In this document: positions 7,184-23,156 of the stretch, one piece after another
Layout of the letters: each line of letters begins with the position of its first letter
Position numbering within the stretch: position 1 is the stretch's first letter
Assembly (NCBI GenBank): GCA_030018475.1
Contig: JASEFT010000002.1
Coordinates: 26,037-73,851 of the forward strand
Origin: Thermoplasmatota archaeon
GTDB lineage: Archaea > Thermoplasmatota > JASEFT01
DNA length: 47,815 bases
Direction of reading: 5' to 3'
Position numbers and translations under genes: made by a program
Notes under the pieces: generated by a model
What the model was told of the DNA's origin: nothing
Seen by the model: the letters and a program-made list of their open reading frames with translations, nothing else
The model's database searches: none

Positions 7184-7408
7184 ATGGTAACACAAAGCCC
7201 GGACGTATCAAGTCTAGCAGAAGTATTGGATAGAATACTAGACAAAGGCATCGTTGTAGACGCATGGGCAAGAATCAGTTTGGTAGGCATTGAGCTACTG
7301 ACGATAGAGGCAAGAGTTGTTGTAGCAAGTGTAGATACATTCTTGCACTATGCAGAAGAGATTACAAAGATAGAGCAAGCAGCTATCGGCGCACCTGCAA
7401 CTGCTTAG
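7184..7408 (+). CDS. gvpA: gas vesicle structural protein GvpA (copy 1)
   Basis: [69 protein letters not shown] is the canonical GvpA core. An SD-like AGGAGGCGGAGAAGGAGAA lies upstream. Confidence 0.95.
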
Positions 7409-7537: not shown

Positions 7538-7762
7538 ATGGTAACACAATCACCAGACGTATCAAGCCTCGCAGAAGTGCTCGACAGAATACTTGACAAA
7601 GGCATCGTTGTAGACGCATGGGTAAGAATCAGCTTGGTAGGCATTGAGCTACTAACGATAGAGGCAAGAGTTGTTGTAGCAAGTGTAGATACATTCTTGC
7701 ACTATGCAGAAGAGATTACAAAGATAGAGCAAGCAGCTATCGGCGCACCTGCAACTGCTTAA
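7538..7762 (+). CDS. gvpA: gas vesicle structural protein GvpA (copy 2, A28V variant)
   Basis: The 74-aa protein is identical to copy 1 except WARISL to WVRISL. The 5' third differs at synonymous sites, while the 3' ~165 nt are nearly identical to copy 1. Confidence 0.95.
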
Positions 7763-7794: not shown

Positions 7795-8469
7795 ATGCCG
7801 GAAACAGTAGAAGAACTAACAACGACTTATTCGCGAGCTGAACTAGACGAAATGGCAGAAGAGCTAGGCTTGGTTCCAGAAGACTACCCTAATAAAGCCG
7901 CAATAGCAAAGGCTATTATTGCAGCAAGAAAAGCCAAACCGCCTGCTGTTAAAATACCCCCGAAAGTAGGCAAGAAAGGCGTGTACGCAAAGATAAAGGC
8001 CGCAGAAAAGTTCACTGCAAAAATGGACGCAGACGTAAAGGCACAAATTGGAGAAAACGTAGAAGCAGTCAAAAAGATAGAAACTGGTATTAGGGAAGTC
8101 GGGGGAAAGATAGAAGAAAAAGTTGATGACATTCAGTCAGCTGTAGACACACAGATAAAAGAGAACCAAGCTAAGGTTGCAGAGATAGGCAAAGATATCA
8201 AAGCACAGCAAAGGGAGAACATAGCGGCAGTCAAAAAGATAGAGACTGGCATAAGTGAAGTAACAAAGGCGAACGAAGCAAAAGTCAAGCAAATCCAGGC
8301 AGACATAGGAAAGCTGGTTAAGGAAAATCTAAGCGCAGTCAAAAAGATCAGTGAAGGTATAAAAGAGCAAGCAAGAGAAAACAAAGAGGCAGTTGAAGCG
8401 TTCGAACCAAAGGTTAGGGAATTGCAGACTGCTAACAAGAAATACGTAGACGACTTCTACTATGGCTGA
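7795..8469 (+). CDS. GvpC-like repeat protein (amphipathic coiled-coil repeats; SAP/Rho-N-like N-terminal motif; C-terminal KKYVDDFYYG)
   Basis: It occupies the gvpC position of the A-C-N-O order. There are three repeats of EN(V/I/L)xAVKKI(E/S)(T/E)GI.E. The N-terminus SRAELDEMAEELGLVPEDYPNKAAIAKAIIAA resembles SAP/Rho_N helix-hairpin motifs. An SD AGGAGGT sits 7 nt upstream. Confidence 0.5.
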   Translation: MPETVEELTTTYSRAELDEMAEELGLVPEDYPNKAAIAKAIIAARKAKPPAVKIPPKVGKKGVYAKIKAAEKFTAKMDADVKAQIGENVEAVKKIETGIREVGGKIEEKVDDIQSAVDTQIKENQAKVAEIGKDIKAQQRENIAAVKKIETGISEVTKANEAKVKQIQADIGKLVKENLSAVKKISEGIKEQARENKEAVEAFEPKVRELQTANKKYVDDFYYG

Positions 8470-8768: not shown

Positions 8769-9779
8769 ATGGGATATGTAAGCATACATCAAAGGAAAGT
8801 GAGAGGTGCATCGGTTCATGACACTCTCGAAACAAAAAGAACCGAAGAGGCAATTAGGGAACAGGAAGTGGAACGCCCTAAACTTGATAGAGAAGTTGTT
8901 GAGGCGACTTATCTAACTCCAGAAGTTGAGAACTTTGTCGAAACACCCCAAGTAAAAAAGATCGAGAGCAGGATAGAACTTTGGCTCAAGATCGGCTACC
9001 CAGTTCACATAATTGGGCCGACAGGTTGCGGGAAGACAACTATAGCGATGCATGTAGCAAGTAAGTTAGGAAGACCAGTTGTGTGGCTAAATGGAGATGA
9101 ATACGTGACAACAACAGATTTTATTGGCGGCTATTCTCAAGTAGAGGTTGAAAGCTTGAGGGACAAATTTATCCATAACGTGTTCAAAAACAAGGATATA
9201 CTAAAAGCAGACTGGGTGGATAACCCACTAACACTTGCATGCAAATACGGCTATACTTTGGTTTACAACGAGTTCTCCAGGACAAGACCAGAAGCAAATA
9301 ACATCTTGTTGTCTGTTTTGGAGGAAGGCATACTAGAACTGCCGACAAAGTTCGGTGAGGAAAGATATGTGCGTGTACATCCAGATTTTAATATGATAGT
9401 GACAAGCAACTCGGTTGAGTACGCAGGTGTGCATCGCCCGCAGGATGCGCTGCTAGACAGGATGATAGGCATATATATGGACTTTTATGATTTCGATACT
9501 GAGGTAGAAATAGTCAAAGCACATACGGGTATAGCAACAAAAGAGGCGAGAAAGGTAGTAAGTGTTGTTAGGAAGCTACGGGAGAAACTAGAAGAAGCAG
9601 AGAAACCTGGTACAAGAGCAGGTATAATGATTGCATATGGGTTACAGGGGCTAGATGGCTATAACAAAGAAGATTTTGAACAGCTTTGTATTGATGCATT
9701 AGCAACGAAAGCAAAAGGGCAGAAAGATTTGGATAAAAAGATCAAATTGGTAAAAGAGGTGGTTAAAGAAATATTTTAG
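8769..9779 (+). CDS. gvpN: GvpN AAA+ ATPase (copy 1)
   Basis: Walker A IIGPTGCGKTT, Walker B hydrophobic-LVYNEF, sensor region SNSVEYAGVHRPQDALLDRM. Position is after gvpA-A-C as in haloarchaeal gvpACNO. 336 aa. Confidence 0.9.
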   Translation: MGYVSIHQRKVRGASVHDTLETKRTEEAIREQEVERPKLDREVVEATYLTPEVENFVETPQVKKIESRIELWLKIGYPVHIIGPTGCGKTTIAMHVASKLGRPVVWLNGDEYVTTTDFIGGYSQVEVESLRDKFIHNVFKNKDILKADWVDNPLTLACKYGYTLVYNEFSRTRPEANNILLSVLEEGILELPTKFGEERYVRVHPDFNMIVTSNSVEYAGVHRPQDALLDRMIGIYMDFYDFDTEVEIVKAHTGIATKEARKVVSVVRKLREKLEEAEKPGTRAGIMIAYGLQGLDGYNKEDFEQLCIDALATKAKGQKDLDKKIKLVKEVVKEIF

Positions 9780-9790
9780 GAGGTAAAAAT

Positions 9791-10168
9791 ATGGCCGAGG
9801 AAAAAAGAGTTGAAGCTGTAATTAAGGAGGCAAAAATTAGGAAGATAGTCGATCTGTGGAGTCACAAACCAAGAGGATTGCAGTTTAATGATACAGATGC
9901 TCTGATAGTGACTGCAGAAACCGAGGCTGGAAAGATAATAAATGAAACGTTCTACTTCTGTCTAAAACCAGATGGAACGTTTAATATAGATACTGTAAGC
10001 AAGAATGGCAGCCATGTGAGGAGACAAAGACTTGCTAGTTTCCTAACACACTACAAGATCACAGACACACCAAAAAGCTACAATATAAAGGAAGGAGTAG
10101 AAAAATGGAAGGGGAAAAAGATAGAAATTGTCCCATACAAAGATGAGGGATATATCTATATTCCATAG
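9791..10168 (+). CDS. hypothetical gvp-associated protein (paralog of 21825..22421)
   Basis: The C-terminus RRQRLASFLTHYKITDTPKSYNIKEGVEKWKGKKIEIVPYKDEGYIYIP parallels RRKRLESFLKHYKITDKIEGYSIPERMKEWKKKKVKVVTYKGQDQIFIP of ORF 21825. SD AGGAGGT upstream. Confidence 0.5.
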   Translation: MAEEKRVEAVIKEAKIRKIVDLWSHKPRGLQFNDTDALIVTAETEAGKIINETFYFCLKPDGTFNIDTVSKNGSHVRRQRLASFLTHYKITDTPKSYNIKEGVEKWKGKKIEIVPYKDEGYIYIP

Positions 10169-10179
10169 GAGGTAATAAA

Positions 10180-10449
10180 ATGGTAACAGCAGAAATTAGT
10201 AAAATAGGAAAACAAAGCCTCTCCACAATAGGGAGTCTTTTAAACAAAAAACCTGAAAGCGTGGTAAGCGTTAGCAAAGAAGGAAAGGAATGGAAAGTCC
10301 TCGCTGAGGTATTGGAAAGAAGGGCGGTGCCTGATACGCAGGACATTCTTGGGAGATATGAGATGCGCTTGAATGAAGAAGGCGAGCTCTTGGGCTACAA
10401 GCAGGTAATGACAAGGAGGAGAGCGGATCTAATAGTAGAAGAAGAGTAG
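10180..10449 (+). CDS. gvpO: GvpO-like protein
   Basis: The 89-aa sequence VSVSKEGKEWKVLAEVLERRAVPDTQDILGRYEMRLNEEGELLGYKQVMTRRRADL fits my recollection of the GvpO family pattern (W.V..EVVER..VPDT.D.L..YE..LD..GEL.GY.R..RY.R). Position follows gvpN as in gvpACNO. SD GGAGGT upstream. Confidence 0.5.
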   Translation: MVTAEISKIGKQSLSTIGSLLNKKPESVVSVSKEGKEWKVLAEVLERRAVPDTQDILGRYEMRLNEEGELLGYKQVMTRRRADLIVEEE

Positions 10450-10893: not shown

Positions 10894-11931
10894 ATGGGGG
10901 TAATAGGAATGTATGAAAAAGATAGATATGATATAACAGGAAGAAAAACAAGAGGCGGAGTAAGATACCATAAAACCATGGAAGAAAAAGAAATGGAAAG
11001 AAGAGAAGCAGAACTCAAGGCTATGCAGCTTGAGAAAACCAGGCAAGAAATTGAGGAGCAATTTCTAACGCCTAAGGCAGAGGTATTCGTTGAAACCGAA
11101 GAAATCAAAGACCTGGAAGAAAGAGTAAAAACTTGGATCGGCCTCGGCTATCCAGTTCACATAATAGGACCAACAGGTTGCGGGAAGACTATGTTAGCAG
11201 TCCACGTAGCGAGTCAGCGTGGAAGACCAGTAGTATGGCTGAATGGTGATGAGGAGATGACAACAACACACCTTGTTGGTGGATACGGACAATACTTGGA
11301 GGAGCACTATCATGACAGATTCATTCATAATGTCTATAAAAGCAGAGAAATGGTTGAACCTGGTTGGGTAGATAATCCATTGACAATTGCATGCAAATAT
11401 GGCTATACATTAATCTATAATGAGTTTTCCAGAGCTAAACCAGAGGCAAATAATGTTTTACTTTCTGTGTTAGAGGAAAAAATACTTGAACTGCCAACAA
11501 AGTTCGGTGAGGAAAGATATATCAAAGTACATCCGGACTTTGCTGCAATACTAACCAGCAACTCAATAGAATACGCAGGGGTACACGCCCCGCAGGATGC
11601 ATTGCTAGACAGAATGATAGCTTTGCATATGGGCTATTACAGTTTCGATACCGAGGTAGAGATCGTCAAAGCCCAAACAGGCATACCTGAGAAGGAAGCA
11701 AAAAAAGTAGTAAAGGTGGTGAGAGCAATAAGAGACAAGCTTCCAGAGGCAGAGAAGCCAGGGTCGAGAGCGTGTATACAGGTTGCTCAAGGACTGCAAG
11801 CGTGGAACGGTTACAGTAAGAAAAACTTCGAAAAAGTATGCATTGATGTGCTTGGATGCAAGATGAAAGGGCTAGACGAGTTATCTAAGATGGAGAAACT
11901 GATAAAAGAAGCGCTTGACAAGCTCACATAA
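10894..11931 (+). CDS. gvpN: GvpN AAA+ ATPase (copy 2)
   Basis: Walker A IIGPTGCGKTM. Clearly paralogous to 8769..9779 over its whole length (GLGYPVHIIGPTGCGKT...PVVWLNGDE...DNPLT.ACKYGYTL.YNEFSR.KPEANN.LLSVLEE.ILELPTKFGEERY..VHPDF). 345 aa. Confidence 0.9.
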   Translation: MGVIGMYEKDRYDITGRKTRGGVRYHKTMEEKEMERREAELKAMQLEKTRQEIEEQFLTPKAEVFVETEEIKDLEERVKTWIGLGYPVHIIGPTGCGKTMLAVHVASQRGRPVVWLNGDEEMTTTHLVGGYGQYLEEHYHDRFIHNVYKSREMVEPGWVDNPLTIACKYGYTLIYNEFSRAKPEANNVLLSVLEEKILELPTKFGEERYIKVHPDFAAILTSNSIEYAGVHAPQDALLDRMIALHMGYYSFDTEVEIVKAQTGIPEKEAKKVVKVVRAIRDKLPEAEKPGSRACIQVAQGLQAWNGYSKKNFEKVCIDVLGCKMKGLDELSKMEKLIKEALDKLT

Positions 11932-11962: not shown

Positions 11963-12778
11963 GTGAAGATGAAGGACGAGGTGGAAAGACGTAAAGAGAA
12001 AAGGGAAAAGATAAGAGCAAATAAGAGAAAACAGAGAGAACTTGTAGAAGCTCATCAGGAAAAAATTAGAGAAGAAATCAAACCATACCTCACGAGAAGG
12101 AAGAGGGCGCACGATTTAAAAGTAGAGGAATTGCAAAAAGATATAAAAGAAAAAGGCAGAGTGCAAAAGGAAGAGGCTAGAGAAAAAGTAAAAAAGCAGC
12201 AGGAAAGGCAGAAAGCAAAAGTAGAGGCTCAGAAAGAGAAGATAAGACTGCAGCAGATTAAGCAAAGAGAAACTGTAGCAGCGCAAATGGAAAAACAGCA
12301 AGCAAGGCTTAAACCAATAATTGAAAGAAATAGGGAAATAGTAGAAGACAGAAAACTCACTAGTAGATTAGATGAGATAAGAAGAGGAAGATTCCTTTTT
12401 ACTTATTCAACCATGCCATCAAAAAAGTTTGCAGACTCAACAACCTATTCTCCAAAGCATTCAACAGTACCAGATCCTGAGTTTAGAGAAAAAACAACTT
12501 ACTCACCAAAGTACACAACTGTACCAGATCCAAAATTTGCAGAAAAAACAAATTTCTCGCCCAAATTCAAGACAGTACCAAAACTGGAGTTTGCGGAGAA
12601 AACAACTTATTCACCCAAGCACTCAACTGTGCCTAAGCCGGAATTTGCAGAGAAGACAACACATTCAACAGTGCCGAGCATAGATTTTGCGCACTCTACA
12701 CACTACTCGATCGTAGAGTTTGAGAGAGTAGCTGATGATAAGGTAAAAACTGAGAAAGAGCGAAAATGGATGGAATAA
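11963..12778 (+). CDS. K/E/R-rich coiled-coil protein with C-terminal 18-aa tandem repeats (TTYSPKHSTVPDPEFxEK x4-5)
   Basis: The N-terminal ~150 aa are almost entirely K/E/R/Q (charged single alpha-helix or coiled-coil type). The C-terminal repeats are TTYSPKHSTVPDPEFREK / TTYSPKYTTVPDPKFAEK / TNFSPKFKTVPKLEFAEK / TTYSPKHSTVPKPEFAEK / TTHSTVPSIDFAHS. A DNA tandem repeat lies at ~12440-12700. Confidence 0.5.
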   Translation: MKMKDEVERRKEKREKIRANKRKQRELVEAHQEKIREEIKPYLTRRKRAHDLKVEELQKDIKEKGRVQKEEAREKVKKQQERQKAKVEAQKEKIRLQQIKQRETVAAQMEKQQARLKPIIERNREIVEDRKLTSRLDEIRRGRFLFTYSTMPSKKFADSTTYSPKHSTVPDPEFREKTTYSPKYTTVPDPKFAEKTNFSPKFKTVPKLEFAEKTTYSPKHSTVPKPEFAEKTTHSTVPSIDFAHSTHYSIVEFERVADDKVKTEKERKWME

Positions 12779-12779
12779 G

Positions 12780-13202
12780 ATGACAGTACTTGACCCAACA
12801 AGAGGTAAAAAGAAAGGCTCTAAAATAATGCCTGAGATGGAAAGATTGATTAGGCAGCAGGAACGCATAAAAAAGCAGACTGAAAGACTTGCAGCGCAAA
12901 AACTAAAAGGATTGCACGGGCGAGCAGAACTCACTGCTTCAAAATTGACACGTGGCGAGCTAGCGCGAAAGCTAGCGGAACAGAAAAGGCTTAATGCACA
13001 GGATAAAAGGATTCTAAAACAGTACGAGGCTGAGAGAGAAAGAGCGCTTGCTGCGAGGCTACGAGGAGAGGCAGTGACTGGGATAGATTTAACAGAAAGG
13101 GCAAAGGTTTCAAGAGAGCTTAGATGGACTGGAAAATGGAAGAGAAGAAAGGCAAAAATGGATGCCGTAGCAAGAAAATATGTGATTAAAGCAGAAAAAT
13201 AA
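12780..13202 (+). CDS. basic R/K-rich helical protein (possible GvpI-like)
   Basis: 140 aa, strongly basic (RQQERIKKQTERLAAQKLKG...). The start is 1 nt after the upstream stop. The GvpI analogy rests only on basic composition. Confidence 0.4.
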   Translation: MTVLDPTRGKKKGSKIMPEMERLIRQQERIKKQTERLAAQKLKGLHGRAELTASKLTRGELARKLAEQKRLNAQDKRILKQYEAERERALAARLRGEAVTGIDLTERAKVSRELRWTGKWKRRKAKMDAVARKYVIKAEK

Positions 13203-13223
13203 AATTTAAAGGAGGTGGAAAAA

Positions 13224-13361
13224 ATGGTGAGTATTAGCCCCGGGATGAAAACTTACGGCGATTTGGGTAGAAAGCTCGATGCCAGAAAACCCTTGCTAGA
13301 ATCAAAAATGAGGGCAAGAATAGAAAAGTCAAAGTTAAAATGGCAAAGGAGAATTAGATAA
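13224..13361 (+). CDS. small basic ORF (45 aa) with strong SD, unannotated in track
   Basis: MVSISPGMKTYGDLGRKLDARKPLLESKMRARIEKSKLKWQRRIR. AAAGGAGGTGG lies 6 nt upstream of the ATG. Confidence 0.3.
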   Translation: MVSISPGMKTYGDLGRKLDARKPLLESKMRARIEKSKLKWQRRIR

Positions 13362-13380
13362 GTTCCAATAAGTGATTTAA

Positions 13381-13689
13381 ATGGATCAAGCAAAATACGA
13401 ACGGATAAAGGCAGCACATTTAGCAAGAGATAGGCTGAAGAGACAAAAGAAGATAGGTCGCTCTGGGTATCTAGCTAGAAAAATTGCAGCAAGAAGAAAA
13501 TATTTCAAACAGAAAAGAAAAGCACTTGATAGAAATTTTGAGGGAAAAAAGCAAGCGAGAGTAGGTAGAGAACATGGTAAATGGAACAGGAAATCAGCTA
13601 AATGGCTGAGCAAGGGCGCAAAATGGACTGGCAAATGGGAGCATAGAGCTGCAAAATTTAGTGCTAGAATGGAAAAACTGTTTGGCTAG
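13381..13689 (+). CDS. basic K/R-rich protein with repeated KW/GKW motifs
   Basis: The 102-aa sequence ...GREHGKWNRKSAKWLSKGAKWTGKWEHRAAKF has a composition like haloarchaeal GvpI. Compositional analogy only. Confidence 0.4.
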   Translation: MDQAKYERIKAAHLARDRLKRQKKIGRSGYLARKIAARRKYFKQKRKALDRNFEGKKQARVGREHGKWNRKSAKWLSKGAKWTGKWEHRAAKFSARMEKLFG

Positions 13690-13779: not shown

Positions 13780-14175
13780 ATGGTAAATGTAAGACCTGCA
13801 AGTGAAGGCTTAAAAGAAGTTTTGGATAGGATACTAGATAAAGGAATTGTTATTGATTTGAATGCAAGAGCCTGCCTTAGCGATTTTGAGCTTTTAGGCA
13901 TAAACGCAATTGTTATTTTGAGCTCGTTCAAAACAGCTGCAAAGATCGGCATGGATTTTCCAGAGGGGACGAAAATGGATACTCCTGCATGGAAGGATTT
14001 ACTGTCAAAGCAGCCATGCCCGCTCTGCGGCAAGGAGTCGAGAACAAAAGAATTAAAAGAAGAAGGCTGCCCTTGGTGCGGCTGGAATTACAGACCTAAG
14101 TATAAAGAAGATAAGAAAACTTTCGAAAAAGAGCGAAAATATAGGTATGGGAAGGGAGGGAAATGGAGGAAATAG
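13780..14175 (+). CDS. GvpA-family (GvpJ/M-like) protein with C-terminal CxxC...CPWCGW zinc ribbon
   Basis: GvpA core [48 protein letters not shown], then CPLCGKESRTKELKEEGCPWCGWNY. Confidence 0.8.
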   Translation: MVNVRPASEGLKEVLDRILDKGIVIDLNARACLSDFELLGINAIVILSSFKTAAKIGMDFPEGTKMDTPAWKDLLSKQPCPLCGKESRTKELKEEGCPWCGWNYRPKYKEDKKTFEKERKYRYGKGGKWRK

Positions 14176-14549
14176 AAATATTAAGACCGGAAATAGAAAC
14201 TGAGGATACTGGCTTGGCAGGTGCAATTGACAGAATTCTAGATAAAGGTTTAGTGCTCAATGCAGATATTACAGTATCGGTTGCTGGTACTGAGTTATTG
14301 GGCATAAAAATAAGAGCTGCGCTCGCTAGTTTCGAAACTGCCGCAAAATATGGCTTAGAATTTCCATCTGGAACGAACATAAACACTGCAGCCTGGAAAG
14401 AGGCAACAATAGAGAAAGATACTTGTCCGCAGTGTGGTAAAAGATCATCTATAGAGGAATTGTTAAACGAGAGCTGTCCTTGGTGCGGCTGGGTATCTGC
14501 AAAGGCAAAAGTAGCAGTAAAACAAAAAGTAAAAGTGTTACAAAAGTGA
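14163..14549 (+). CDS. GvpA-family (GvpJ/M-like) protein with C-terminal CPQCG...CPWCGW zinc ribbon (paralog of preceding gene)
   Basis: LAGAIDRILDKGLVLNADITVSVAGTELLGIKIRAALASFETAAKYG, then CPQCGKRSSIEELLNESCPWCGWVS. Overlaps the upstream gene by 13 nt. Confidence 0.8.
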   Translation: MEEIEILRPEIETEDTGLAGAIDRILDKGLVLNADITVSVAGTELLGIKIRAALASFETAAKYGLEFPSGTNINTAAWKEATIEKDTCPQCGKRSSIEELLNESCPWCGWVSAKAKVAVKQKVKVLQK

Positions 14550-14556
14550 AACAAAA

Positions 14557-15357
14557 ATGGTTGATAACTCGTTCAAAAGGCTTGCTGAGTTCTTACCTTC
14601 AGATAAAAAAATTGCTGTTCTTAATGAGCTTTTAACTGTTTATGACGAAAGTGAGTTAGCGAAACTGCTTAAGTGCGATCCTCCTCTTATCAAGAAATGG
14701 TTGAGAAAAGCTCCGAGCAATAAATACATGCCCAAAATACTAGGGCTTGCTTTTTTCCGCTCCCCAAATATAGGTGATATACTTAAAGAAACGTTAACTG
14801 AGTTTGATTCTTTAGCTAAGTTGCTCGGCATAAAAGATGTAACTAGCAAGTTGGGCATTTTTATGAAGGAATTAGATGAAAGGAGCAGGGAAATAGTCTG
14901 GTATCTACTGAGAAACGGTCATGCAAATATTCGCGAGCTTGCAGAGATAACTAACGCAAAGACAGATAATGAAGTTCTTGTTAGGGTGAGAGAGCTTATA
15001 AACCCAAAATCAAAAGAACTCTTCGGTAAAGAAATAATGAAATTCGAAGAAGCTAAAATTAATTCTGTAACAGGTGAAAAAATTCTATTTTCATGGTGGC
15101 TGACTGAGAATATTCTACCTCTGGAGAGAGCCCCAACACTACTTGACGTATTTGATGAAAATTCTCGGATTAAAATAGTAGCAGAACTGCCGAGAGTTAA
15201 AGAAGATGATATAAAAATAGATATTGCACACCAGATCCTTACTATTTCAACTAATGGATATCAAAAAACAATCCCCCTATTTTGTAAGGTAAAGAAGATT
15301 GAAAAAACCTACAGGAATGGGATACTGGAGCTGAAGCTAGAAAAAGCTATGGAATGA
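14557..15357 (+). CDS. HTH-like N-terminal region fused to Hsp20/alpha-crystallin domain (GvpH-like)
   Basis: The C-terminus LLDVFDENSRIKIVAELPRVKEDDIKIDIAHQILTISTNGYQKTIPLFCKVKKIEKTYRNGILELKLEKA is an alpha-crystallin core. The N-terminal IVWYLLRNGHANIRELAEITNAKTDNEVLVRVRELI looks like a helix-turn-helix. Confidence 0.6.
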   Translation: MVDNSFKRLAEFLPSDKKIAVLNELLTVYDESELAKLLKCDPPLIKKWLRKAPSNKYMPKILGLAFFRSPNIGDILKETLTEFDSLAKLLGIKDVTSKLGIFMKELDERSREIVWYLLRNGHANIRELAEITNAKTDNEVLVRVRELINPKSKELFGKEIMKFEEAKINSVTGEKILFSWWLTENILPLERAPTLLDVFDENSRIKIVAELPRVKEDDIKIDIAHQILTISTNGYQKTIPLFCKVKKIEKTYRNGILELKLEKAME

Positions 15358-15366
15358 TAAAAAAAA

Positions 15367-15945
15367 ATGGCAGAAGAGAAAGAAGAAGATTACAAAAAAA
15401 GAATAAAAGAGCTTGAAGCCAGAATAAAAGCGCTCGAAAAGGAAAGAGAAAAGCCTAAAGAAGAAGAGCCTAGTATTGTAGAAGGTGTTGTTTCTCAATT
15501 TATACCTGGCTTGAGCGGTATTATTAAGAGCTTAGAAAAGAGCTCCCCTGAATTTAGAAAGCGCATTGCAGAGACTGATGCCAAAATCAAGCATAGATTA
15601 GAGACTGGCTGGACAAGCAAGCCTAAAGTGGAGTATGGTGTCACTGTGCGCGAGCTTGTACCTGAGAAGAGGGAAAAAATAGAAATAAAGCCGAAGGAAG
15701 TAAAAGCTCCTACTCTCGAGCGTGAGCCAATTGTCGATGTTTTTGAAACTGAAAAATATATTTCTGTAATTGCAGAACTGCCTGGTGTTGAGGAAAGAGA
15801 AATAAAAACGAAACTTACTGAAGACGGGCTTGAAATTTCTGCGGGTAGATATAAAAAAATTATCAAGCTCCCTTCTAAGCCAAAAGCGATTGGTGAGAAA
15901 ACATACAAGCACGGCATCTTAGAGCTTAAAATAGATAAAAAATGA
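15367..15945 (+). CDS. Hsp20/alpha-crystallin-domain protein (GvpH-like)
   Basis: PIVDVFETEKYISVIAELPGVEEREIKTKLTEDGLEISAG...YKHGILELKIDKK. Coiled-coil K/E N-terminus. Confidence 0.6.
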   Translation: MAEEKEEDYKKRIKELEARIKALEKEREKPKEEEPSIVEGVVSQFIPGLSGIIKSLEKSSPEFRKRIAETDAKIKHRLETGWTSKPKVEYGVTVRELVPEKREKIEIKPKEVKAPTLEREPIVDVFETEKYISVIAELPGVEEREIKTKLTEDGLEISAGRYKKIIKLPSKPKAIGEKTYKHGILELKIDKK

Positions 15946-16027: not shown

Positions 16028-16348
16028 ATGACTATTAATATTGACGAGAACAATCTAAAGCAAGGCTTGCTTGGCTTGGTAGTAGCGCTAGTCGAAGTAA
16101 TACAGGAAACGCTAGAAAGGCAAGCGCTTAGAAGAATGGAATCAGGAAGATTGACAGAAGAAGAAATTGAGCGACTAGGAAATGCATTAATGGAACTTGA
16201 TGAAGCGCTTGAGCACATAAAAAAAGAAAATAAAATTGAAGAAGCAGTAAAATCAGTGAGAAGCGGTCTTGATAATATAGCACACGAGCTCGTAAACAAA
16301 ATGGTCAATCCAGAGAAGTGGAAAGAGGAAGTTGAGGCAAATGCCTGA
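16028..16348 (+). CDS. gvpK: gas vesicle protein GvpK
   Basis: LLGLVVALVEVIQETLERQALRRMESGRLTEEEIERLGNALMELDEALEHI matches the conserved GvpK core (GL..LV..VVELL...E..A.RRMESG.L...EIERLG). Confidence 0.8.
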   Translation: MTINIDENNLKQGLLGLVVALVEVIQETLERQALRRMESGRLTEEEIERLGNALMELDEALEHIKKENKIEEAVKSVRSGLDNIAHELVNKMVNPEKWKEEVEANA

Positions 16349-17171
16349 AGAAGAGGTGGTAGTTGAAAAAGAGGCACTAGAAGCTCAGGAGGCTAGATAT
16401 CTTTATTGTATAATTAACTCTAGCGCTACCTCAGACTTTGGTGATATGGGGATAGAGGACAGCAAAGTTTACACTATACCTTGTAAAGACATTGCTGCAG
16501 TTGTGCATAAATGCGCTCCTAAGCCTTACAAATCAAAAGACGAGAATCTGGTGAAAGAATGGATTTTAGCGCATCAATATATTATTGACGAAGCCATGAA
16601 AAAATTTGGTACGCCAATACCTTTCACTTTTGATACTATAATTAAAGGTGATGATGACAAAGTAAAAGAGTGGCTAGCTGAAGATTACCCAACGCTTAAA
16701 GCCAAACTGGAAAAAGTCAAAGATAAAGCAGAATACACTGTTCAAATATTTTGTGAGCCTAATATTATTCTTAAAGAAATTGAGGCCCAAAACGAAGCTC
16801 TGAAGAAATTAAAAGAAGAGATCAAAACAAAGCCTAAAGGCATCGCTTATATGCTCAGCCAGAAATTAGAAAGAATGCAAAAAGAAGAGCTGATAAAGCT
16901 TGAGAATAATTATGTTAAAGATTTTTACGAGCAGCTAAAGAGCCTCGTTGACGAATGTATAGCAGAGCCTACAAACAAGCCAGTGCCTGAAAAATGGAAA
17001 GCTCAAAAGCTAATTTTAAATTTGGCTTGTCTAGTACATAAGGATAAAGTTGAGAAGCTTGGAGAAGAGTTAGGGAAGATTAATAAAACCCAAAAATTCA
17101 AGGTGAGGTTTACAGGTCCTTGGGCACCTTTCTCATTTGTCGGCAAAGAGCTTGGGGAGAAGAAAACTTGA
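16332..17171 (+). CDS. gas vesicle protein GvpF/L family
   Basis: The N-terminus YLYCIINSSATSDFGDMGIEDSKVYTIPCKDIAAVVH plus internal ILAHQYIIDEAMKKFGTPIPFTFDTII and the C-terminal [10 protein letters not shown] are typical GvpF/L. Overlaps gvpK by 17 nt. Confidence 0.75.
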   Translation: MRQMPEEEVVVEKEALEAQEARYLYCIINSSATSDFGDMGIEDSKVYTIPCKDIAAVVHKCAPKPYKSKDENLVKEWILAHQYIIDEAMKKFGTPIPFTFDTIIKGDDDKVKEWLAEDYPTLKAKLEKVKDKAEYTVQIFCEPNIILKEIEAQNEALKKLKEEIKTKPKGIAYMLSQKLERMQKEELIKLENNYVKDFYEQLKSLVDECIAEPTNKPVPEKWKAQKLILNLACLVHKDKVEKLGEELGKINKTQKFKVRFTGPWAPFSFVGKELGEKKT

Positions 17172-18160
17172 AAAAGGGTATATACATCTACGGAATAATT
17201 GAAGAGAACGGGAACAAAAGTTTCGGGCAAATTGGAATGGATAAGAGCGAAGTATATACTATTCCCTATCAAACTCTTGCTGCTGTCGTTAGCAACGTGC
17301 CTGCTATGGTATATCAACTTACTCCCGAAAATGCAAGGGCCCATGAGAACGTTATCAGAAAAGTTATGGAAGAGCGCTCAGTTATTCCTATGAGTTTCGG
17401 TACGGTCGCGAGCAATGGCAGCCAAGTTGAAAAGATTTTGAGTATTGGTTACAAGGTATTCAAATCCATGCTTGAAAGGATAGAAAATAAGATCCAAATA
17501 GATGTAAAGGTGCTGTGGGATAAAGATAAAATATACCTTGACATTTTGCGCGAAAACGAAAATATCAAAAGGTTAACTAGGAAAGCAGATAAGTCCCAAG
17601 AGGATAAAATAGAGCTTGGCAAGCTTGTCAACCAAGCGTTAGCTGAGAAAAGAGAATTTTATATTGGTGAGATAAAAAATGTTTTAGCCAATTTTTCAGA
17701 GCCGCCAAAAGAAAACAAGCTTACCGATGAAAGAATGATTTTGAACTTGGCTTATTTGGTTGATAAAACAAGAGAACAAGAATTTTATGACAGGGTAAAT
17801 GAGAAAGAGAGAAGTTATGAAGGCAAACTCCAGATAATCGCAGTGGGCCCCCTGCCTGCTTATAATTTTACTAAACTAGAATTAAAAAAGCTAGATTTTA
17901 AATTGATAGACAGTGCAAGAAAAATACTAGGGCTAAATGAAGAAATAACCAATGAAGAGCTTGAAGAAGCGCATCGAAAGCTTGCATATAGATATCATCC
18001 AGATAGAAATCCAAACGATGTGGCTTCAGAGCAGCAGTTCAAAAAAATTGAGAAAGCCTATATGATACTTGCTAGGTATTCCAAAAATTATCCTGCTGGA
18101 AAAATCTCGCTCAAGAAAGAAGATGTTGATAAAACCATTCTGATCCTGGAAAAAGAGTGA
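17120..18160 (+). CDS. GvpF/L-family protein fused to C-terminal DnaJ (J) domain
   Basis: GvpF/L core [39 protein letters not shown]...VGPLPAYNF. The C-terminal 70 aa [52 protein letters not shown] carry the HPD J-domain signature. An in-frame TTG at 17168, overlapping the upstream TGA, is an alternative start. Confidence 0.75.
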
Positions 18161-18165
18161 AAAAA

Positions 18166-20064
18166 ATGAGCAAGATCATAGGTATAGACCTGGGGACGAG
18201 TAATTCTGCAGCTGCCGTAATTGTAAATGGTAGTGTAAAAATAATACCTAGCGCGGAAGGTCTTGCTCTGCATGGTAAAATGTTCCCTTCAGTTATTACT
18301 TTTCTGGAAGAGGGGAAGGTAATAGTAGGAAAGGATGCAAAAAAATTAATGGCTCCTGGGCGCACGATAACAAACATCAAAAGAAAGATGGGTACTGATT
18401 ATAAAATAAAAATCGGTAAGAAATGGTATATCCCACAAGAGCTCTCAGCGCTTATTTTAAAGAAGATAAAAAAAGATGCAGAATTATATCTTAATGAATC
18501 TATAAAGAAAGCAGTTATTACTTGCCCTGCATATTTTAACGATAATCAAAGAACTGCAACGAGAGATGCAGGTGTTATCGCAGGCTTAGATGTTGTGCGC
18601 ATTATAAACGAGCCTACTGCAGCAGCTTTAGCTTACGGGCTAGATAAAACTAAAAGAAAATTGAATATCGCAGTTTTGGATTTAGGTGGTGGCACTTTCG
18701 ATGTTACTATTCTAGAAATGTGCAATTCTGTGTTTAGAGTTATAGCTACCTCCGGCGATACTCAGCTTGGCGGAATAGATATGGATAATAAAATTCTAGA
18801 TTATCTGGTTGATAAGTTAAGAGGAGAAGCGCTTGATTTAAAAGCCGAAAATCTCATGCAGGTATTAAGAAACGAGGCAGAAAAGGCAAAAATAAACCTA
18901 TCTTCTAAACTTTCAACAACCATAAATTTGCCTTTTACTAATGTAAATATAAATCTAACGAGGACTAAACTAGAAGAGCTGATTGAAGATGTAATTTCAA
19001 GAATGGATAAACCATTAGAGCAAGCATTGGCAGACTCGAATTTAGCTCCTAAAGATATCGATAAAATAATTCTGGTAGGCGGGCCTACAAAAATGCCGGT
19101 TATTAGAAAAAAGGTAAAAGAATTTTTCGGTAGAGTTCCTGAGCGCGGTATAGATCCTATGCACTGTGTTGCTGCAGGCGCTGCTATCCAAGGGAGCGTG
19201 CTTTCCGGTGAACTTGGTAATATTGCGCTCCTTGACGTTACACCGCTCTCATTAGGTATAGAGACTTCAGGCACTGTGTTCACAAGATTAATACACAGAA
19301 ATACTACTATCCCAGTAGAAGAGAGCAGAGTATTTACAACTGCACAGGATTTTCAGTCTGTAGTGCCAATCCATGTATTGCAAGGTGAAAGAGCGCTTGC
19401 GCACGACAATATAACTTTAGGCGTGTTTAATCTAACTGGAATAAAGCCTGCACCTAGACACGAGCCCATGATTGAAGTTACTTTCAGTATAGATGCTAAT
19501 GGCATATTACACGTCTCTGCAGAAGATTTGGAAACCGGTAAAAAGCAAGCAATCGAAATAACAGAATCGACAAGATTGCCTAAAGAAGAGATAAGCAGAA
19601 TGATCAACGAGGCAGCAGTGTTTGCAGAGCTGGATAAAAGAAAGGAAAATGAGATAAAGCTTCGCACTAGAGCAGAAGCGCTTATCTACGAGCTGGGCCA
19701 AGTAATAAAAAAAGAAAAGCTCCCTATTGACGAGAAAAGGAATATTACAACGCTTGTTAAAGAATTAAAGCACGCGCTAAGAGTTAATAATAATGAGCAA
19801 GTGAAGAGCGCTACTGAGGAATTGAATAAATTAGTAGATAGAATAGCATTAAGAAACAGAGCTGCTAACCGAGCAAACGCATTAATATCTTCGGCAAACA
19901 AAATGATTACAGAAATTAAAATTCCCAAAGCCGAAAAAGTGGCTATTGAGGAAATGATTGTGAAATTAAAAGAAGCGTTAAAGAATGATAACACTAAAGA
20001 AATCGAAAAGCAGATCGGTGAGCTGACTGAAGAATTGACTATATTAGAGGTAGATTATAAATGA
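18166..20064 (+). CDS. Hsp70/DnaK-family chaperone (divergent, gvp-cluster-embedded)
   Basis: [65 protein letters not shown] and [16 protein letters not shown] are canonical Hsp70 NBD motifs. The track start is GTG at 18157, overlapping the upstream stop; ATG at 18166 gives the canonical [11 protein letters not shown]. 632-635 aa. Confidence 0.9.
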
Positions 20065-20438
20065 AAAAAAGATCAATATTTCAAAAAGCTGTAGACGACT
20101 GGTTTAAAGGAAAGGCGATTCAGGAATTTATTAAGGCAAGGTGTAGAGGAAGAGCATTTGATGCAGTTCAAAATCTTGCGAGAAGAATTTCGGAAGGTGC
20201 CGAGGAATATAGAAAAAGAATAATGGAAGGAGCGGTCAGGTACAGAAGAAAAGTTAAAACATCAGCTTCCAGAGCTAAAGGATGTGACCTTTGTATAGGA
20301 GTAGAGAAGCTGACAAATGTAGCAAGATACGAGTTGATAGGTGAACCGAAAGCAGAGTATATCCCTAAATATTTGTGTGAGTTTCATTACCAACATGGAA
20401 TATATAAAGACAATTATTGTTATAGAAAGATTAAATGA
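20061..20438 (+). CDS. hypothetical Cys-containing protein, translationally coupled to Hsp70 (ATGA overlap)
   Basis: 125 aa with CRGRAF, GCDLCIG, CEFHY and YCY. Possible metal-binding. No family recognised. Confidence 0.4.
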
Positions 20439-20459
20439 TGTTAAAAAGAGGTAATAAAA

Positions 20460-20864
20460 ATGAAAACGAGACCGCCAATAGTTAGAACGTTAGATGCGCA
20501 TTTATATTCGCAGATAGCAGGCGAGTTGCGCAAGAGGCTACCAGGGAAGGTAATTATAGAGATTGATAGAGGAATGGATATGAAGGGAAAAAGTGTAGTT
20601 ACCTTACGATGTAGACATCCCGAAATAGCTAAAAAGACAATTGCAGAAGTGCTTGGTGAAGAATATATTGAGCCTGAGATAGGCGAGGATTTGCCGCAAC
20701 CTAGGCAATGGTGGCAGCGCTCTATTGATTCATGTATGGGCGGGGGAAGAGCTAGAGACGCTGGCGATCTAAGGAAGAGCATGTATATGTATGCAAAAAA
20801 ATTTCAAGCTGATACTGCAAAAGTTAGAGAAAGGATATATAAGAAAAAGAGAGAAATGAGATGA
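20460..20864 (+). CDS. hypothetical protein (shares a ~60-aa domain with next ORF)
   Basis: KVIIEIDRGMDMKGKSVVTLRCRHPEIAKKTIAEVLGEE parallels HVRVDIERTMSEKGEKIVEIWSMYPEIVKSAIEKVSGK of 20865..21086. Confidence 0.4.
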   Translation: MKTRPPIVRTLDAHLYSQIAGELRKRLPGKVIIEIDRGMDMKGKSVVTLRCRHPEIAKKTIAEVLGEEYIEPEIGEDLPQPRQWWQRSIDSCMGGGRARDAGDLRKSMYMYAKKFQADTAKVRERIYKKKREMR

Positions 20865-21086
20865 GTGAAGGGGAGCAAAATGACAAGAAAAGGGGTATTA
20901 GTTTGTAAGTTGCCTGATCATGTGTACAGAGCAAAGATTGGTGCAATAAGATCTCAATTCTCTCAGCATGTGAGAGTAGACATTGAGAGAACGATGAGTG
21001 AAAAAGGAGAGAAAATAGTCGAGATATGGAGTATGTATCCAGAGATAGTAAAGAGTGCGATTGAAAAGGTGTCAGGAAAGAGGTGA
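20865..21086 (+). CDS. hypothetical small protein (paralogous domain to 20460..20864)
   Basis: See previous entry. 73 aa, starts 1 nt after the upstream stop. Confidence 0.35.
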   Translation: MKGSKMTRKGVLVCKLPDHVYRAKIGAIRSQFSQHVRVDIERTMSEKGEKIVEIWSMYPEIVKSAIEKVSGKR

Positions 21087-21091
21087 AATAG

Positions 21092-21514
21092 ATGGTAGAT
21101 ATAAGTCCTCTAGAAGAGAGGGGAAAGGCTGAGCAGCAGAGAATAAAAGTACAAGCCAAAAGAGCCGAGGATAGAGCCAAACGCTCTGAAAAAAGAAGAA
21201 TTGCAGCAGAAAAATTACGAGAAAAGGCTGAGAAGTGGCGTAAAGAGATAGAGAAAAGAGAAGAAAATAGAATGGCGGCAGCAGAAAAATGGCGAGCAGA
21301 AGCAGAAAAGTGGCGACAAAAAACAGAAAGAGAACGTGAAGAAAGGGCGAGAGCCAGTGAGAAATGGAGAGCCGATGCGCAAAGAAGACATGAAGAGCGA
21401 GAAAGAAGGCATAGGGAGAGAAGAGAAGCTGCAGAAAAAAGAGAGGCAGAAGCAAGAAGGAAATCAGAGGAGCGAGGAACAGCCTATTTATCTCGTTCAA
21501 TGAGTCGTTGGTAG
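21092..21514 (+). CDS. highly charged E/R/K-rich repeat protein (AEKWR repeats)
   Basis: RIAAEKLREKAEKWRKEIEKREENRMAAAEKWRAEAEKWRQKTEREREERARASEKWRADAQRR is a periodic EKWR motif. Likely a single alpha-helix or coiled coil. Confidence 0.4.
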   Translation: MVDISPLEERGKAEQQRIKVQAKRAEDRAKRSEKRRIAAEKLREKAEKWRKEIEKREENRMAAAEKWRAEAEKWRQKTEREREERARASEKWRADAQRRHEERERRHRERREAAEKREAEARRKSEERGTAYLSRSMSRW

Positions 21515-21656
21515 GTGAGCCGGATGGTTACCTATGAAAAAGAAGAGGGAGCTATGGTGTCGCTATCTAAATGTAGCTAGAGGTGCGATTGAAAGAGCAT
21601 TAAAAATTAGAGGTATTGCGGACGATCTTGTTGAACATGATTAAGAGGCGAAATAA

Positions 21657-21740
21657 ATGGTAAACATAAGACCTAACAGAGGGCTGGAATGGAGCGCTTA
21701 AAGAAGAGGTTAGAAGATCGCAAGGAGCAGTGCAAGAAAT
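21657..21740 (+). pseudogene. degraded remnant of a GvpA-family (J/M-like) gene start
   Basis: ATGGTAAACATAAGACCTAAC encodes MVNIRPN, against MVNVRPA of ORF 13780. The following GCGCTTAAAGAAGAGGTTAGAAGATCG resembles GGCTTAAAAGAAGTTTTGGATAGG (LKEVLDR) of 13780 but is frameshifted, with a stop after 14 codons. Confidence 0.25.
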
Positions 21741-21824
21741 GATAGAAAGCAGTTTCGAACCTCGAAGCACAAAGCTCAATACTGTTCAGCCTTTATATGA
21801 AATAGGAAAAAAACAAAAAGGGGA

Positions 21825-22421
21825 GTGAAGTATATGGCAGAGTTATATAAGCCGAAATTAACACCAAAAAGGAGCCCAAAAGAAATTAAAGAAAGATTTA
21901 GGAAGGAGAAAAAGCGACATGCAGAAGCTCTAGAACGATTAAGAGAAGCAAGAAAAATCGAGCTAGAAAAGGTAGATGCTACAATTGAAGATGCGATACT
22001 TTATACCGACACATCTTGGTTTGTTGAAAATTTCGATAACTGCTATGAAATAAAGGATTTATGGGCAACGAGACCTAAACTTTATGGTGATACCGATGTG
22101 ATAGCTGTAACTTTAAAACCATCCGAGGGTAAGCCGATAACAGATATATTCCCAGTTGTGCTGAGATTTGACGGCACATTAGAACCCAATGCTACATCTA
22201 GAAGGTCGCGCATTAGAAGGAAAAGGCTTGAAAGTTTTCTAAAACACTATAAAATAACCGACAAAATAGAAGGTTATAGTATACCTGAAAGAATGAAAGA
22301 ATGGAAAAAGAAAAAAGTAAAAGTAGTTACCTACAAGGGACAGGATCAAATCTTTATCCCTAACCATCTAGTTAGATATCGTATGCCCAAAATGCCTGAA
22401 AAAATCAAAGAGGTGAAATAA
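21825..22421 (+). CDS. hypothetical gvp-associated protein (paralog of 9791..10168, with longer N-terminus)
   Basis: See 9791..10168. 198 aa. Confidence 0.5.
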   Translation: MKYMAELYKPKLTPKRSPKEIKERFRKEKKRHAEALERLREARKIELEKVDATIEDAILYTDTSWFVENFDNCYEIKDLWATRPKLYGDTDVIAVTLKPSEGKPITDIFPVVLRFDGTLEPNATSRRSRIRRKRLESFLKHYKITDKIEGYSIPERMKEWKKKKVKVVTYKGQDQIFIPNHLVRYRMPKMPEKIKEVK

Positions 22422-22568
22422 ATGGTGAAATATAAATATATAGGAAAACCTGAAAAATGCCCTGCGTGTGGCGAACCTGTAAAAAATCCAGACCTCAACT
22501 ATTGTTTGAAATGTGGTGAGATGTTCTGGAGCAAGGGGTTCACACGAAGAACTAAATTAATTAGATAA
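22422..22568 (+). CDS. small zinc-ribbon protein (48 aa), unannotated in track
   Basis: MVKYKYIGKPEKCPACGEPVKNPDLNYCLKCGEMFWSKGFTRRTKLIR has two CxxCG pairs. SD AGGTGA lies 6 nt upstream and the ATG directly abuts the upstream stop. Confidence 0.45.
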   Translation: MVKYKYIGKPEKCPACGEPVKNPDLNYCLKCGEMFWSKGFTRRTKLIR

Positions 22569-22577
22569 GGTACTAAA

Positions 22578-23156
22578 ATGAAGCCTACAAAAGATCTAGA
22601 ATGCACGCTTGTAGATGTGTTAGACAGAATTCTAGATAAAGGCATTATTCTTAATGCAGATGTTATTATCCACGTTGCAGGTGTGCCGCTGATCGGTATA
22701 AATTTAAGAGCTGCGCTCGCAGGTATAGAAACAATGCTTGATTACGGTATGATGGAAGCCTGGGATGCAAGTATAAGAAGCTGGTATGCAAAGGGGTATG
22801 CTGATAAAATAGCTGTGCCGTTGCAAGAAAACGAAAAAATTATACTCAAAACCTACGGCTCTTATTATAACGATGGCGGTATTTACTCTGCATGGCAGCA
22901 TGGCTATCTCTATCTTACAAACAAAAGATTATTTTTGTTTAGGAAAGAGCCTGCTAGAATGTTGTTTGAGACAGAGCTATTGAAAATAAGAAGTCTAGAG
23001 ATAAGTGAGAAAAACTATTTGGGAAAAAGCAGAGAAAATCTTTGCTTGTTATTAGAAAACAATAAAATTGCAATGCTTTATTCAGAGAACATAGAGGAAT
23101 TAAAGACTGCGATTAACAAACAAATAGAAATGCTACTAGCTGCAATAGAGCAATAG
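22578..23156 (+). CDS. GvpA-family N-terminal domain fused to C-terminal bacterial-PH (bPH/GRAM-like) domain
   Basis: The N-terminus [47 protein letters not shown] is a GvpA/J/M core. The C-terminus GYLYLTNKRLFLFRKEP...LLKIRSLEISEK matches the bPH_2-type motif (G.LyLTN.Rlif). Confidence 0.7.
   Translation: MKPTKDLECTLVDVLDRILDKGIILNADVIIHVAGVPLIGINLRAALAGIETMLDYGMMEAWDASIRSWYAKGYADKIAVPLQENEKIILKTYGSYYNDGGIYSAWQHGYLYLTNKRLFLFRKEPARMLFETELLKIRSLEISEKNYLGKSRENLCLLLENNKIAMLYSENIEELKTAINKQIEMLLAAIEQ

Follow-up and report, generated by a model that had tools for sequence, protein, structure and literature searches.

A conserved four-cysteine module on GvpJ-type proteins marks a distinct type of gas vesicle gene cluster

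A pair of GvpJ-type genes with a C-terminal four-cysteine module

The DNA analyzed in this work, referred to below as the window, is a stretch of 47,815 nucleotides (nt) from a Thermoplasmatota archaeon (assembly GCA_030018475.1, contig JASEFT010000002.1, positions 26,037 to 73,851). It carries a complete gas vesicle (gvp) gene cluster, with two copies of gvpA, two of gvpN, gvpO, gvpK and two genes of the GvpF/L family, and within this cluster lie two adjacent genes, both on the forward strand, that encode minor paralogs of the shell protein GvpA. Where canonical GvpJ has a variable, disordered C-terminal tail, both proteins carry instead a compact, ~45-residue module, made up of a short Trp-containing helix followed by a four-cysteine (Cys4), zinc-ribbon-like knuckle pair. 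Below we call the first open reading frame (ORF) ZnJ1 and the second ZnJ2, use ZnR-GvpJ (or ZnRJ) for proteins of this type and ribbon for the module, and give all coordinates in window numbering and residue numbers separately for each paralog.

ZnJ1 (13780..14175) encodes 131 amino acids (aa), arranged as a GvpA-like core (13807..13953, aa 10-58, with the Pfam match at aa 11-47), a linker helix and Cys4 ribbon (together 13954..14088, aa 59-103; FPEGT..PAW..CPLCG-x13-CPWCGW) and a basic tail. ZnJ2 (14163..14549, 128 aa), which represents a widely distributed orthologue type, has its core at 14211..14360 (aa 17-66) and its linker and ribbon at 14361..14495 (aa 67-111; FPSGT..AAW..CPQCG-x13-CPWCGW). 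The two reading frames overlap by 13 nt, the signature FP(E/S)GT...(P/A)AW...CPxCG-x13-CPWCGW follows the core in frame in both ORFs, and ZnJ1 and ZnJ2 share 48% identity from core through linker to ribbon (expect value (E) 3e-33), an agreement far above chance. No support was found for the antisense ORFs listed over the same region. The start of ZnJ2 (14163..14178) is ambiguous: the ATG at 14163 has GGAGGG just upstream, while the NCBI protein of a near-identical metagenome-assembled genome (MAG; P0001, 123 aa) begins five codons after it. We favour the ATG at 14163 because homologues carry N-terminal extensions.

Both proteins match the Pfam family Gas_vesicle (PF00741) above its gathering score of 25 bits, ZnJ1 with 29 bits (E 1.2e-6) and ZnJ2 with 56.1 bits (E 4e-15), and their frames are continuous. 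The initial annotation, which had placed two GvpA-family paralogs of a J/M-like kind in this interval, is thus confirmed as to family, and its label can be made more exact: the two are GvpJ-type, and the GvpM-like gene of the cluster lies elsewhere, at 22578..23156. The best NCBIfam model for each protein is the haloarchaeal GvpJ model NF046090 (55 bits, E 6.6e-15 for ZnJ1; 96.4 bits, E 7.7e-28 for ZnJ2), in both cases under its cutoff of 125 bits, and the scores also fall under the NCBIfam GvpA family cutoffs. Since NF046090 is the best model yet is matched under its cutoff, we name the proteins GvpJ-type and do not count them as NF046090 members. Alignment to this model extends beyond helix a2 through the segment GLEFPxGT, up to profile position 64-65 of 73; the segment is common to GvpJ and not to GvpA or GvpM, and it is also present in two haloarchaeal loci (L026, L028). 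Overall, we are nearly certain that ZnJ1 and ZnJ2 are GvpJ-type paralogs with a genuine conserved Cys4 module.

Conservation of the module

Database searches gave 3462 matches for ZnJ2 and 124 for ZnJ1, and the motif was scored in the best 120 of each. Among these, the Cys4 motif is present in 119 of the 120 ZnJ2 homologues and in all 120 ZnJ1 homologues (239/240), with a spacer of 13 residues between the knuckles in 229 of the 239 motif-bearing proteins. All four cysteines are invariant in diversity-thinned alignments of ZnJ2 (C88, C91, C105 and C108; 47 sequences) and of ZnJ1 (C80, C83, C97 and C100; 75 sequences), so the concern of the initial annotation that the Cys pairs might be lost in orthologs is not borne out. 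The ZnJ2 residues W78, P89, L100, P106, W107 and G109 are conserved in at least 90% of the sequences.

The mean identity of the homologues to the window proteins is 88% in the core, 76% in the linker and 71% in the ribbon for ZnJ2, and 64% (90 homologues), 67% and 78%, respectively, for ZnJ1. This core-level identity of the ribbon indicates that it is under about the same constraint as the shell-forming core. Both proteins are weakly conserved at the N-terminus and in the basic C-terminal tail (18-41% identity), and most ZnJ1 homologues lack the basic tail. ZnJ2 of this archaeon and the bacterial copies at L002-L016 and L062 share 64-79% identity, which is similar to GvpA from the same loci (67-85%) and above GvpK (54-65%), GvpF (31-50%) and GvpN (43-48%).

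Predicted fold and class of the module

AlphaFold2 (AF2) models of both paralogs contain, in order, an a1-b1-b2-a2 core, a short helix at the AW motif, a first-knuckle hairpin, a short helix and the second knuckle. The core elements span residues 11-21 (helix), 23-33 and 36-47 (strands) and 50-56 (helix) in ZnJ1, and residues 18-28, 30-40, 43-54 and 57-63 in ZnJ2. The modelled core has the same a1-b1-b2-a2 fold as the solved GvpA shell; the ZnJ2 alignment profile matches the GvpA structures 8gbs (8.4e-16) and 7r1c (9e-14), and a Foldseek search with the AF2 model gave 7r1c and 8gbs as its top matches (probability 0.99). Beyond GvpA, Foldseek gave noise only, a limit that we ascribe to the low confidence of the AF2 model. 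The ribbon region of ZnJ2 has the highest predicted local distance difference test (pLDDT) values of its model, 76-79, and the strands predicted for the first-knuckle hairpin (85-87 with 94-96 in ZnJ2, 77-79 with 86-88 in ZnJ1) are assigned at a pLDDT of about 70-79.

When compared with the PDB, the tail profile gave matches below significance, led by Rpo12/RpoP (0.013) and followed by eL43, S27ae and L32 (to 0.4). These ribbons, including eL43/L37ae, resemble the module in being small and in having two CxxC knuckles about 13-14 residues apart; they differ in context, in the lack of a significant match and in the inter-knuckle helix that AF2 predicts for the GvpJ module. Among profile families, Zn_ribbon_3 reached 14.7 bits against a cutoff of 27, and Cys_rich_KTR, Cys_rich_CPCC, HypA and others all stayed under their cutoffs. 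In rubredoxins, ~30 residues separate the CxxCG and CPxCG knuckles, and the fold, of ~50 aa, has an aromatic core. A rubredoxin identity was rejected: the knuckles do have the CPxCG form, but 13 residues lie between them, and the Pfam scan reported no rubredoxin family at E up to 0.1. As no curated zinc-ribbon or rubredoxin family was matched above threshold, we term the module zinc-ribbon-like Cys4, and its sequence suggests that it binds metal.

Distribution, duplication and reuse of the ribbon

In a taxonomic scan with one genome for each species, GvpJ with the ribbon turned up in a wide range of archaea (Bathyarchaeota, the DPANN groups Nanoarchaeota and Woesearchaeota, Methanomicrobia and Methanosarcina) and bacteria (Bacteroidales, Atribacter, Nitrospirota, Syntrophales, Ca. 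Hakubella, Dehalococcoidia, Desulfobacteraceae, Geobacteraceae, Pseudomonadota, Actinomycetes and Bacillota). Source names in the protein database add Thermoplasmatota (a protein 99% identical to ZnJ2 and thus probably from this organism), Altiarchaeota, Methanobacterium and Negativicutes. Finished plasmids of two cultured organisms, Natronococcus occultus SP4 (WP_015323277.1) and Streptomyces sp. SGAir0924 (WP_019328275.1), carry it as well. An exhaustive search of 50%-identity cluster representatives yielded 4479 GvpA-family clusters, and the ribbon is present in 45 of the 150 best; within the GvpA superfamily, the family is thus a minor branch, though a well-populated one. The ribbon-GvpJ architecture is an old, widely transferred family, and the fusion, far from being a local oddity, defines a large conserved family that spans many archaeal and bacterial phyla and plasmids. 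A lineage-specific invention is ruled out by the genome and plasmid scans. Ribbon-type clusters dominate in lineages of anaerobic sediment and groundwater; a restriction to anaerobes is weakened by the Streptomyces and Natronococcus carriers.

Duplicated ZnRJ genes are found in archaea (the window, L001, L014 and L081), and in each of these the ZnJ1 type, which was found on archaeal contigs only, lies immediately upstream of ZnJ2. Of the two, ZnJ2 is the widespread orthologue; ZnJ1 can most simply be read as an archaeal tandem duplicate.

The ribbon is also found on a second Gvp protein. The GvpM-like gene of the window (22578..23156, forward strand) encodes a GvpM-like core (haloarchaeal GvpM model of NCBIfam, E 2.4e-27; PF00741) joined to a PH/GLUE-like domain, which matches Vps36_ESCRT-II (9.7e-5) and bPH_3 (2.2e-4) in Pfam. 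This protein, GvpM-PH, has no ribbon in this genome. At six bacterial loci (L002, L004, L006, L008, L009 and L062) the C-terminus of GvpM-PH reads CPxCG-x13-CxxCGW(V/I/M), and 16 long representatives (219-372 aa) carry the same C-terminal motif; by this signature, the GvpM-PH ribbon is clearly the same module as that of GvpJ. Two routes thus led to a second protein with the ribbon: in archaea ZnRJ was duplicated, and in bacteria the module was fused to GvpM-PH. The ribbon-bearing bacterial GvpM-PH orthologues are 246-374 aa long, and the M-like version of Streptomyces has two PH-like repeats and no ribbon. A rule of always two ribbons per cluster, from which obligatory pairing of ribbons would follow, was considered and rejected, as it holds in about 10 clusters (ZnJ1 with ZnJ2 in archaea, ZnRJ with a ribbon-bearing GvpM-PH in bacteria) and fails in about 12 single-ribbon clusters.

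The ribbon marks a distinct type of gvp cluster

Downstream of ZnJ2, all on the forward strand, lie two genes for Hsp20-like proteins in a GvpH-like position (14557..15945; weak matches to HSP20, ArsA_HSP20 and HTH_24), GvpK (16028..16348; PF05121, 1.7e-21), GvpF/L (16332..17171; PF06386, 3.3e-68), a GvpL/F protein fused to a DnaJ J-domain (17120..18160; PF06386 and PF00226) and a dedicated Hsp70 (18157..20064; PF00012, 3e-185), followed by GvpM-PH. This arrangement recurs across phyla, with an order in the fetched loci, as determined by tblastn, of ZnRJ, Hsp20-like genes in part of them, GvpK, GvpF, optionally GvpL-DnaJ and Hsp70, and GvpM-PH. ZnJ1 and ZnJ2 are part of a conserved J-K-F/L-M block within the cluster. 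GvpK and GvpF/L always follow ZnR-GvpJ in related loci, and the Hsp20-like genes are directly downstream of it and syntenic in most of them (L001-L025).

We compared the surroundings of 25 ribbon loci with those of 55 other GvpA-family loci, in counts that are indicative only, as a good number of the contigs are truncated and sampling differed between the two sets. GvpM-PH is found at 14 of the 25 ribbon loci and at 3 of the 55 others, and these three exceptions are Methanoperedens and Methanocalculus relatives with decayed ribbons. The corresponding counts are 9/25 versus 1/55 for Hsp70, 11/25 versus 3/55 for the J-domain GvpL and 18/25 versus 14/55 for the Hsp20-like genes. The ribbon marks a distinct gvp cluster type composed of ZnR-GvpJ, Hsp20-like proteins, GvpK, GvpF and GvpM-PH, often with GvpL-DnaJ and Hsp70. 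The J-domain fusion to GvpL, followed by Hsp70 in the same cluster, implies that Hsp70 is recruited to a GvpL scaffold. Among the papers that a literature search on this pairing returned, none contains both Hsp70 and GvpL.

The two plasmids carry a reduced form of this cluster, a mini-module of ZnR-GvpJ, an M-like paralog, GvpK and GvpL/F (L083 8968..11535 in Natronococcus occultus SP4, on its plasmid 2; L084 9001..11594 in Streptomyces sp. SGAir0924). A TetR-family regulator flanks each mini-module, and no gvpA or gvpN is annotated within 9 kb on either side, the flanks being the part of these genomes that was covered.

Further genes of the window's cluster lie upstream of ZnJ1. The two gvpA genes for the major shell protein (7184..7408 and 7538..7762, forward strand) are of equal length (NCBIfam GvpA, 132 bits with a cutoff of 100) and are followed by a repeat protein at the GvpC position (7795..8469). 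The two GvpN proteins (8769..9779 and 10894..11931) are paralogous AAA_5 ATPases, with GvpO (10180..10449) and small ORFs between them. One of these (9791..10168, ORF9791), located between GvpN and GvpO, encodes a conserved 125-aa protein of unknown function that has no Pfam or NCBIfam match and has homologues at gvp loci of Methanoperedens, a Methanobacteriota MAG and Woesearchaeota (39-58% identity; L020, L021, L023 and L024). Between the second GvpN and ZnJ1 are Lys/Arg-rich ORFs (11963..13689). The first of them (11963..12778) encodes a Lys/Glu-rich protein whose C-terminal half consists of about five tandem repeats of ~17 aa (TTYSPKHSTVPDPEFxEK), with homologues upstream of ZnRJ in a Nanoarchaeota MAG (53%) and Methanosarcina (34%); by analogy with GvpC, its product may be an external, vesicle-binding repeat protein. 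More Lys/Arg-rich ORFs follow at 12780..13689.

Comparison with known gas vesicle proteins

The closest known counterparts are haloarchaeal GvpJ and the GvpJ and GvpS proteins of Bacillus, which agree with ZnJ1 and ZnJ2 in core, genomic position and presumed role; the folded, putatively metal-binding module and the chaperone-rich type of cluster set ZnJ1 and ZnJ2 apart. Haloarchaeal GvpJ (Halobacterium salinarum; NF046090) shares with them the a1-b1-b2-a2 core, the GLEFPxGT segment and a position beside gvpK and gvpL/F. Its tails, however, are acidic, Cys-free and unstructured (L026, L028), whereas those of ZnJ1 and ZnJ2 consist of a conserved helix and the Cys4 ribbon. GvpJ and GvpS of Bacillus megaterium (pNL29) and GvpA2/A3 of Serratia are likewise minor proteins homologous to GvpA, proposed to seed vesicles at the tips and to act with GvpK and GvpL (PMC11445434), but no metal-binding module has been described for them and their clusters lack Hsp70, DnaJ-GvpL and GvpM-PH. 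GvpA itself (7r1c, 8gbs) has the same core fold, the DRILDKG... motif and the alternating hydrophobic pattern in the beta-hairpin; it differs in its length of about 70-88 aa and its short flexible C-terminus, and the window has gvpA genes of its own.

The one metal-binding motif that we found described for a Gvp protein is the C-terminal zinc-finger motif of haloarchaeal GvpC; the literature, including a 2022 review (PMC9501494), yielded no other. GvpC is an unrelated, external reinforcing protein with a different motif, and it has no sequence relationship to the GvpJ ribbon. The initial view that GvpJ, GvpM and GvpS proteins normally lack such a ribbon is upheld for the well-studied ones, since the haloarchaeal tails are Cys-free and the 2022 review places a zinc finger in GvpC alone. 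A full-text literature search, which does not extend to subscription-only papers, found no paper on a zinc ribbon or Cys motif on GvpJ or GvpM, and public annotations of these proteins read 'gas vesicle protein' or are mislabels such as L37AE/L43A, rubredoxin, topoisomerase zinc finger or Nob1. Neither the module nor the cluster type appears to have been described, though the sequences have long been in databases and their family membership is obvious. The ribbon offers a marker for a widely transferred gvp cluster type that has its own Hsp70 and J-domain chaperones and a PH-domain GvpM. We know of no attempt to use a ribbon-type cluster as an acoustic-reporter chassis.

Possible role of the module

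The GvpA subunit has a coil-a-b-b-a-coil arrangement with a hydrophobic luminal face, helix a2 folded back on the hairpin and a flexible C-terminus, and subunits are ~12 A apart along a rib (PMC9994262). GvpJ, GvpM and GvpS are putative nucleation or tip factors; the GvpA-GvpL interaction of B. megaterium needs GvpS, GvpK and GvpJ, and in Halobacterium GvpL interacts with GvpM, GvpK and GvpJ (PMC11445434, PMC9994262). As the module follows a2, we infer that it is located on the outer, cytoplasmic face of whichever part of the vesicle GvpJ occupies. At a subunit spacing of 12 A, a folded knob on every subunit would disfavour long straight ribs and would suit a role at the tip or in the seed.

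A nucleation role for the ribbon is plausible. In the reading that we prefer, to which we give roughly even chances, the metal-stabilised module would be a rigid protein-protein contact knob that assists in assembling the seeding complex which GvpJ, GvpM, GvpK and GvpL/F form early on, where the cone tip will arise. Such a knob would act by binding a partner encoded in the J-K-F/L-M block or by pairing ribbon-bearing subunits, and it would not bind nucleic acid. We favour a contact knob because the ribbon combines core-like conservation, a surface of Trp, Pro and Leu, co-inheritance with GvpK, GvpF/L and GvpM, and reuse on GvpM.

Nucleation is the main open question of the gas vesicle field, and GvpJ, GvpM/S and GvpK are suspected seed components (PMC9994262, PMC11445434). 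A conserved rigid module on the exterior would provide a structural landmark for locating GvpJ in bicones by cryo-electron tomography, and its four cysteines a clean mutational handle for separating a seeding role from a shell-forming one.

Several observations weigh against this reading. The haloarchaeal, Bacillus and cyanobacterial gas vesicle systems work without the module. In GvpJ of Methanoperedens and of a Methanobacteriota MAG (L020 9992..10348, L022 8078..8434 and L024 9986..10342), the tail is recognizably homologous to the Methanosarcina ribbon (..NRREEHLLIEEG..) but has other residues in place of all four Cys and of the Trp residues, and the GvpJ tail of Methanocalculus is truncated. 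The module can thus decay while its gene stays in an otherwise intact cluster, and together with the ribbon-less systems such natural losses make it an accessory and not a universal requirement. About half of the ribbon clusters have a single ribbon, so pairing of ribbons is not obligatory. The AF2 models are of low confidence overall (mean pLDDT 65 and 66.7 for the two paralogs), as is expected for a lattice protein modelled as a monomer, and the Pfam and NCBIfam scans placed no curated zinc-ribbon family above threshold. The Methanoperedens-type GvpJ is at the same time a natural ligand-less variant, useful for functional comparison.

An alternative to a lattice or seed contact is that the ribbon serves as a hand-off handle, docking the hydrophobic GvpJ to the chaperones GvpL-DnaJ, Hsp70 and Hsp20-like. 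The enrichment of all three beside ribbon-GvpJ, and their joint presence in the window, are what such a handle would lead one to expect, but more than half of the ribbon loci have neither Hsp70 nor a J-domain within reach (many of these contigs are cut), and the Natronococcus and Streptomyces mini-modules carry the ribbon without chaperones. Moreover, the typical substrates of Hsp70 are extended hydrophobic segments and not folded zinc knuckles. We regard this explanation as unlikely.

The Cys4 site, with bound Zn or Fe, could instead be a switch that senses oxidation or metal supply and gates nucleation, which could matter at oxic-anoxic boundaries. Both knuckles have the rubredoxin-like form CPxCG, some members carry the automatic JGI label rubredoxin, and most carriers are anaerobes (methanogens, Bathyarchaeota, Atribacter, Dehalococcoidia, Syntrophales, Desulfobacteraceae and Geobacteraceae). 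Yet the aerobic Streptomyces and Natronococcus carry the ribbon too, Pfam gives no rubredoxin match and the 13-residue spacer is far shorter than that of rubredoxin, and the sequence offers nothing that would separate a sensing from a structural site; a switch is accordingly improbable in our estimate. We hold just as doubtful the broader proposal built on it, by which the ribbon would be a redox- or metal-gated Cys4 centre that licenses nucleation and, with GvpM-PH, GvpK and GvpL/F, would form a mobile, cross-phylum 'seed machine'. Under this proposal the module, as it stands alone on the Natronococcus and Streptomyces plasmids, might prime vesicles from gvpA encoded elsewhere or build a different structure.

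Nucleic-acid binding, which the initial annotation had raised as one possible function, would let the ribbon attach to RNA or DNA, so that translation could, for instance, be coupled to assembly. The weak profile similarity to Rpo12/RpoP, eL43, S27ae and L32 (E 0.013-0.4) and the Lys/Arg-rich C-terminal tails of the window's two proteins point in this direction. These similarities, however, are below significance and reflect a generic knuckle pattern, there is no conservation of the basic tails (18-41% identity, with no such tail in most ZnJ1 homologues), the conserved surface residues are Trp, Pro and Leu and not basic, and the module is fused to a hydrophobic, shell-forming core. The suggestion therefore finds no support, and we consider it highly improbable. 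The chance that the architecture is an artefact, in which a frameshift or an error of assembly has attached a small zinc-ribbon gene of its own to gvpJ or the Cys pattern is fortuitous, is close to nil: apart from a free-standing Cys4 ORF elsewhere in the cluster (22422..22568) nothing speaks for it, whereas ribbon and GvpA-like core are conserved to a similar degree, the linker between them is itself conserved, and no break in the frame occurs either in the window or in the 240 independent homologues, which come from many assemblies, finished plasmids of cultured strains among them.

A lineage-specific insert between Hsp70 and GvpM-PH

The free-standing Cys4 ORF (forward strand, 48 aa) has the form CPACG-x12-CLKCG and weak matches to the DZR and Zn_ribbon families of Pfam. 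Its spacer is 12 residues long and it lacks the CGW signature; no relation to the GvpJ ribbon is detectable, and tblastn found no match to it in the related loci L001-L025 and L062, nor is it present in L081. We also considered whether it could be a ribbon split off from GvpM-PH and rejected this, as it has no detectable homology, another spacer and no counterpart in related loci. The free-standing zinc ribbon noted initially therefore exists as an ORF with weak zinc-ribbon matches, but it is lineage-specific and not a conserved part of the system.

A second element, first taken for a degraded GvpJ/M remnant, is a short copy of the 5' end of ZnJ1 (21653..21740, forward strand). Its first 22 nt (21653..21674) reproduce the ribosome-binding site region and the first six codons of ZnJ1, where 0 such copies are expected by chance, and its frame meets a stop after 14 codons (translation MVNIRPNRGLEWSA); by eye, there may be ~25 nt of further similarity with insertions and deletions. 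The copy is hence non-random, but there is no GvpA core in it.

Both elements are located in a 2.5-kb insert between Hsp70 and GvpM-PH (20061..22568) that is absent from the related contig L081 and is lineage-specific; the short ZnJ1 copy, like the free-standing ORF, is no conserved part of the system. The insert also holds an Arg/Glu/Lys-rich ORF. Among its other ORFs, ORF21825 is a paralog of ORF9791 (43% identity, 7e-28), and ORF20460 and ORF20865 are related to each other (2e-9). With paralogs of cluster genes inside it, the insert looks like a zone of local duplication or rearrangement.

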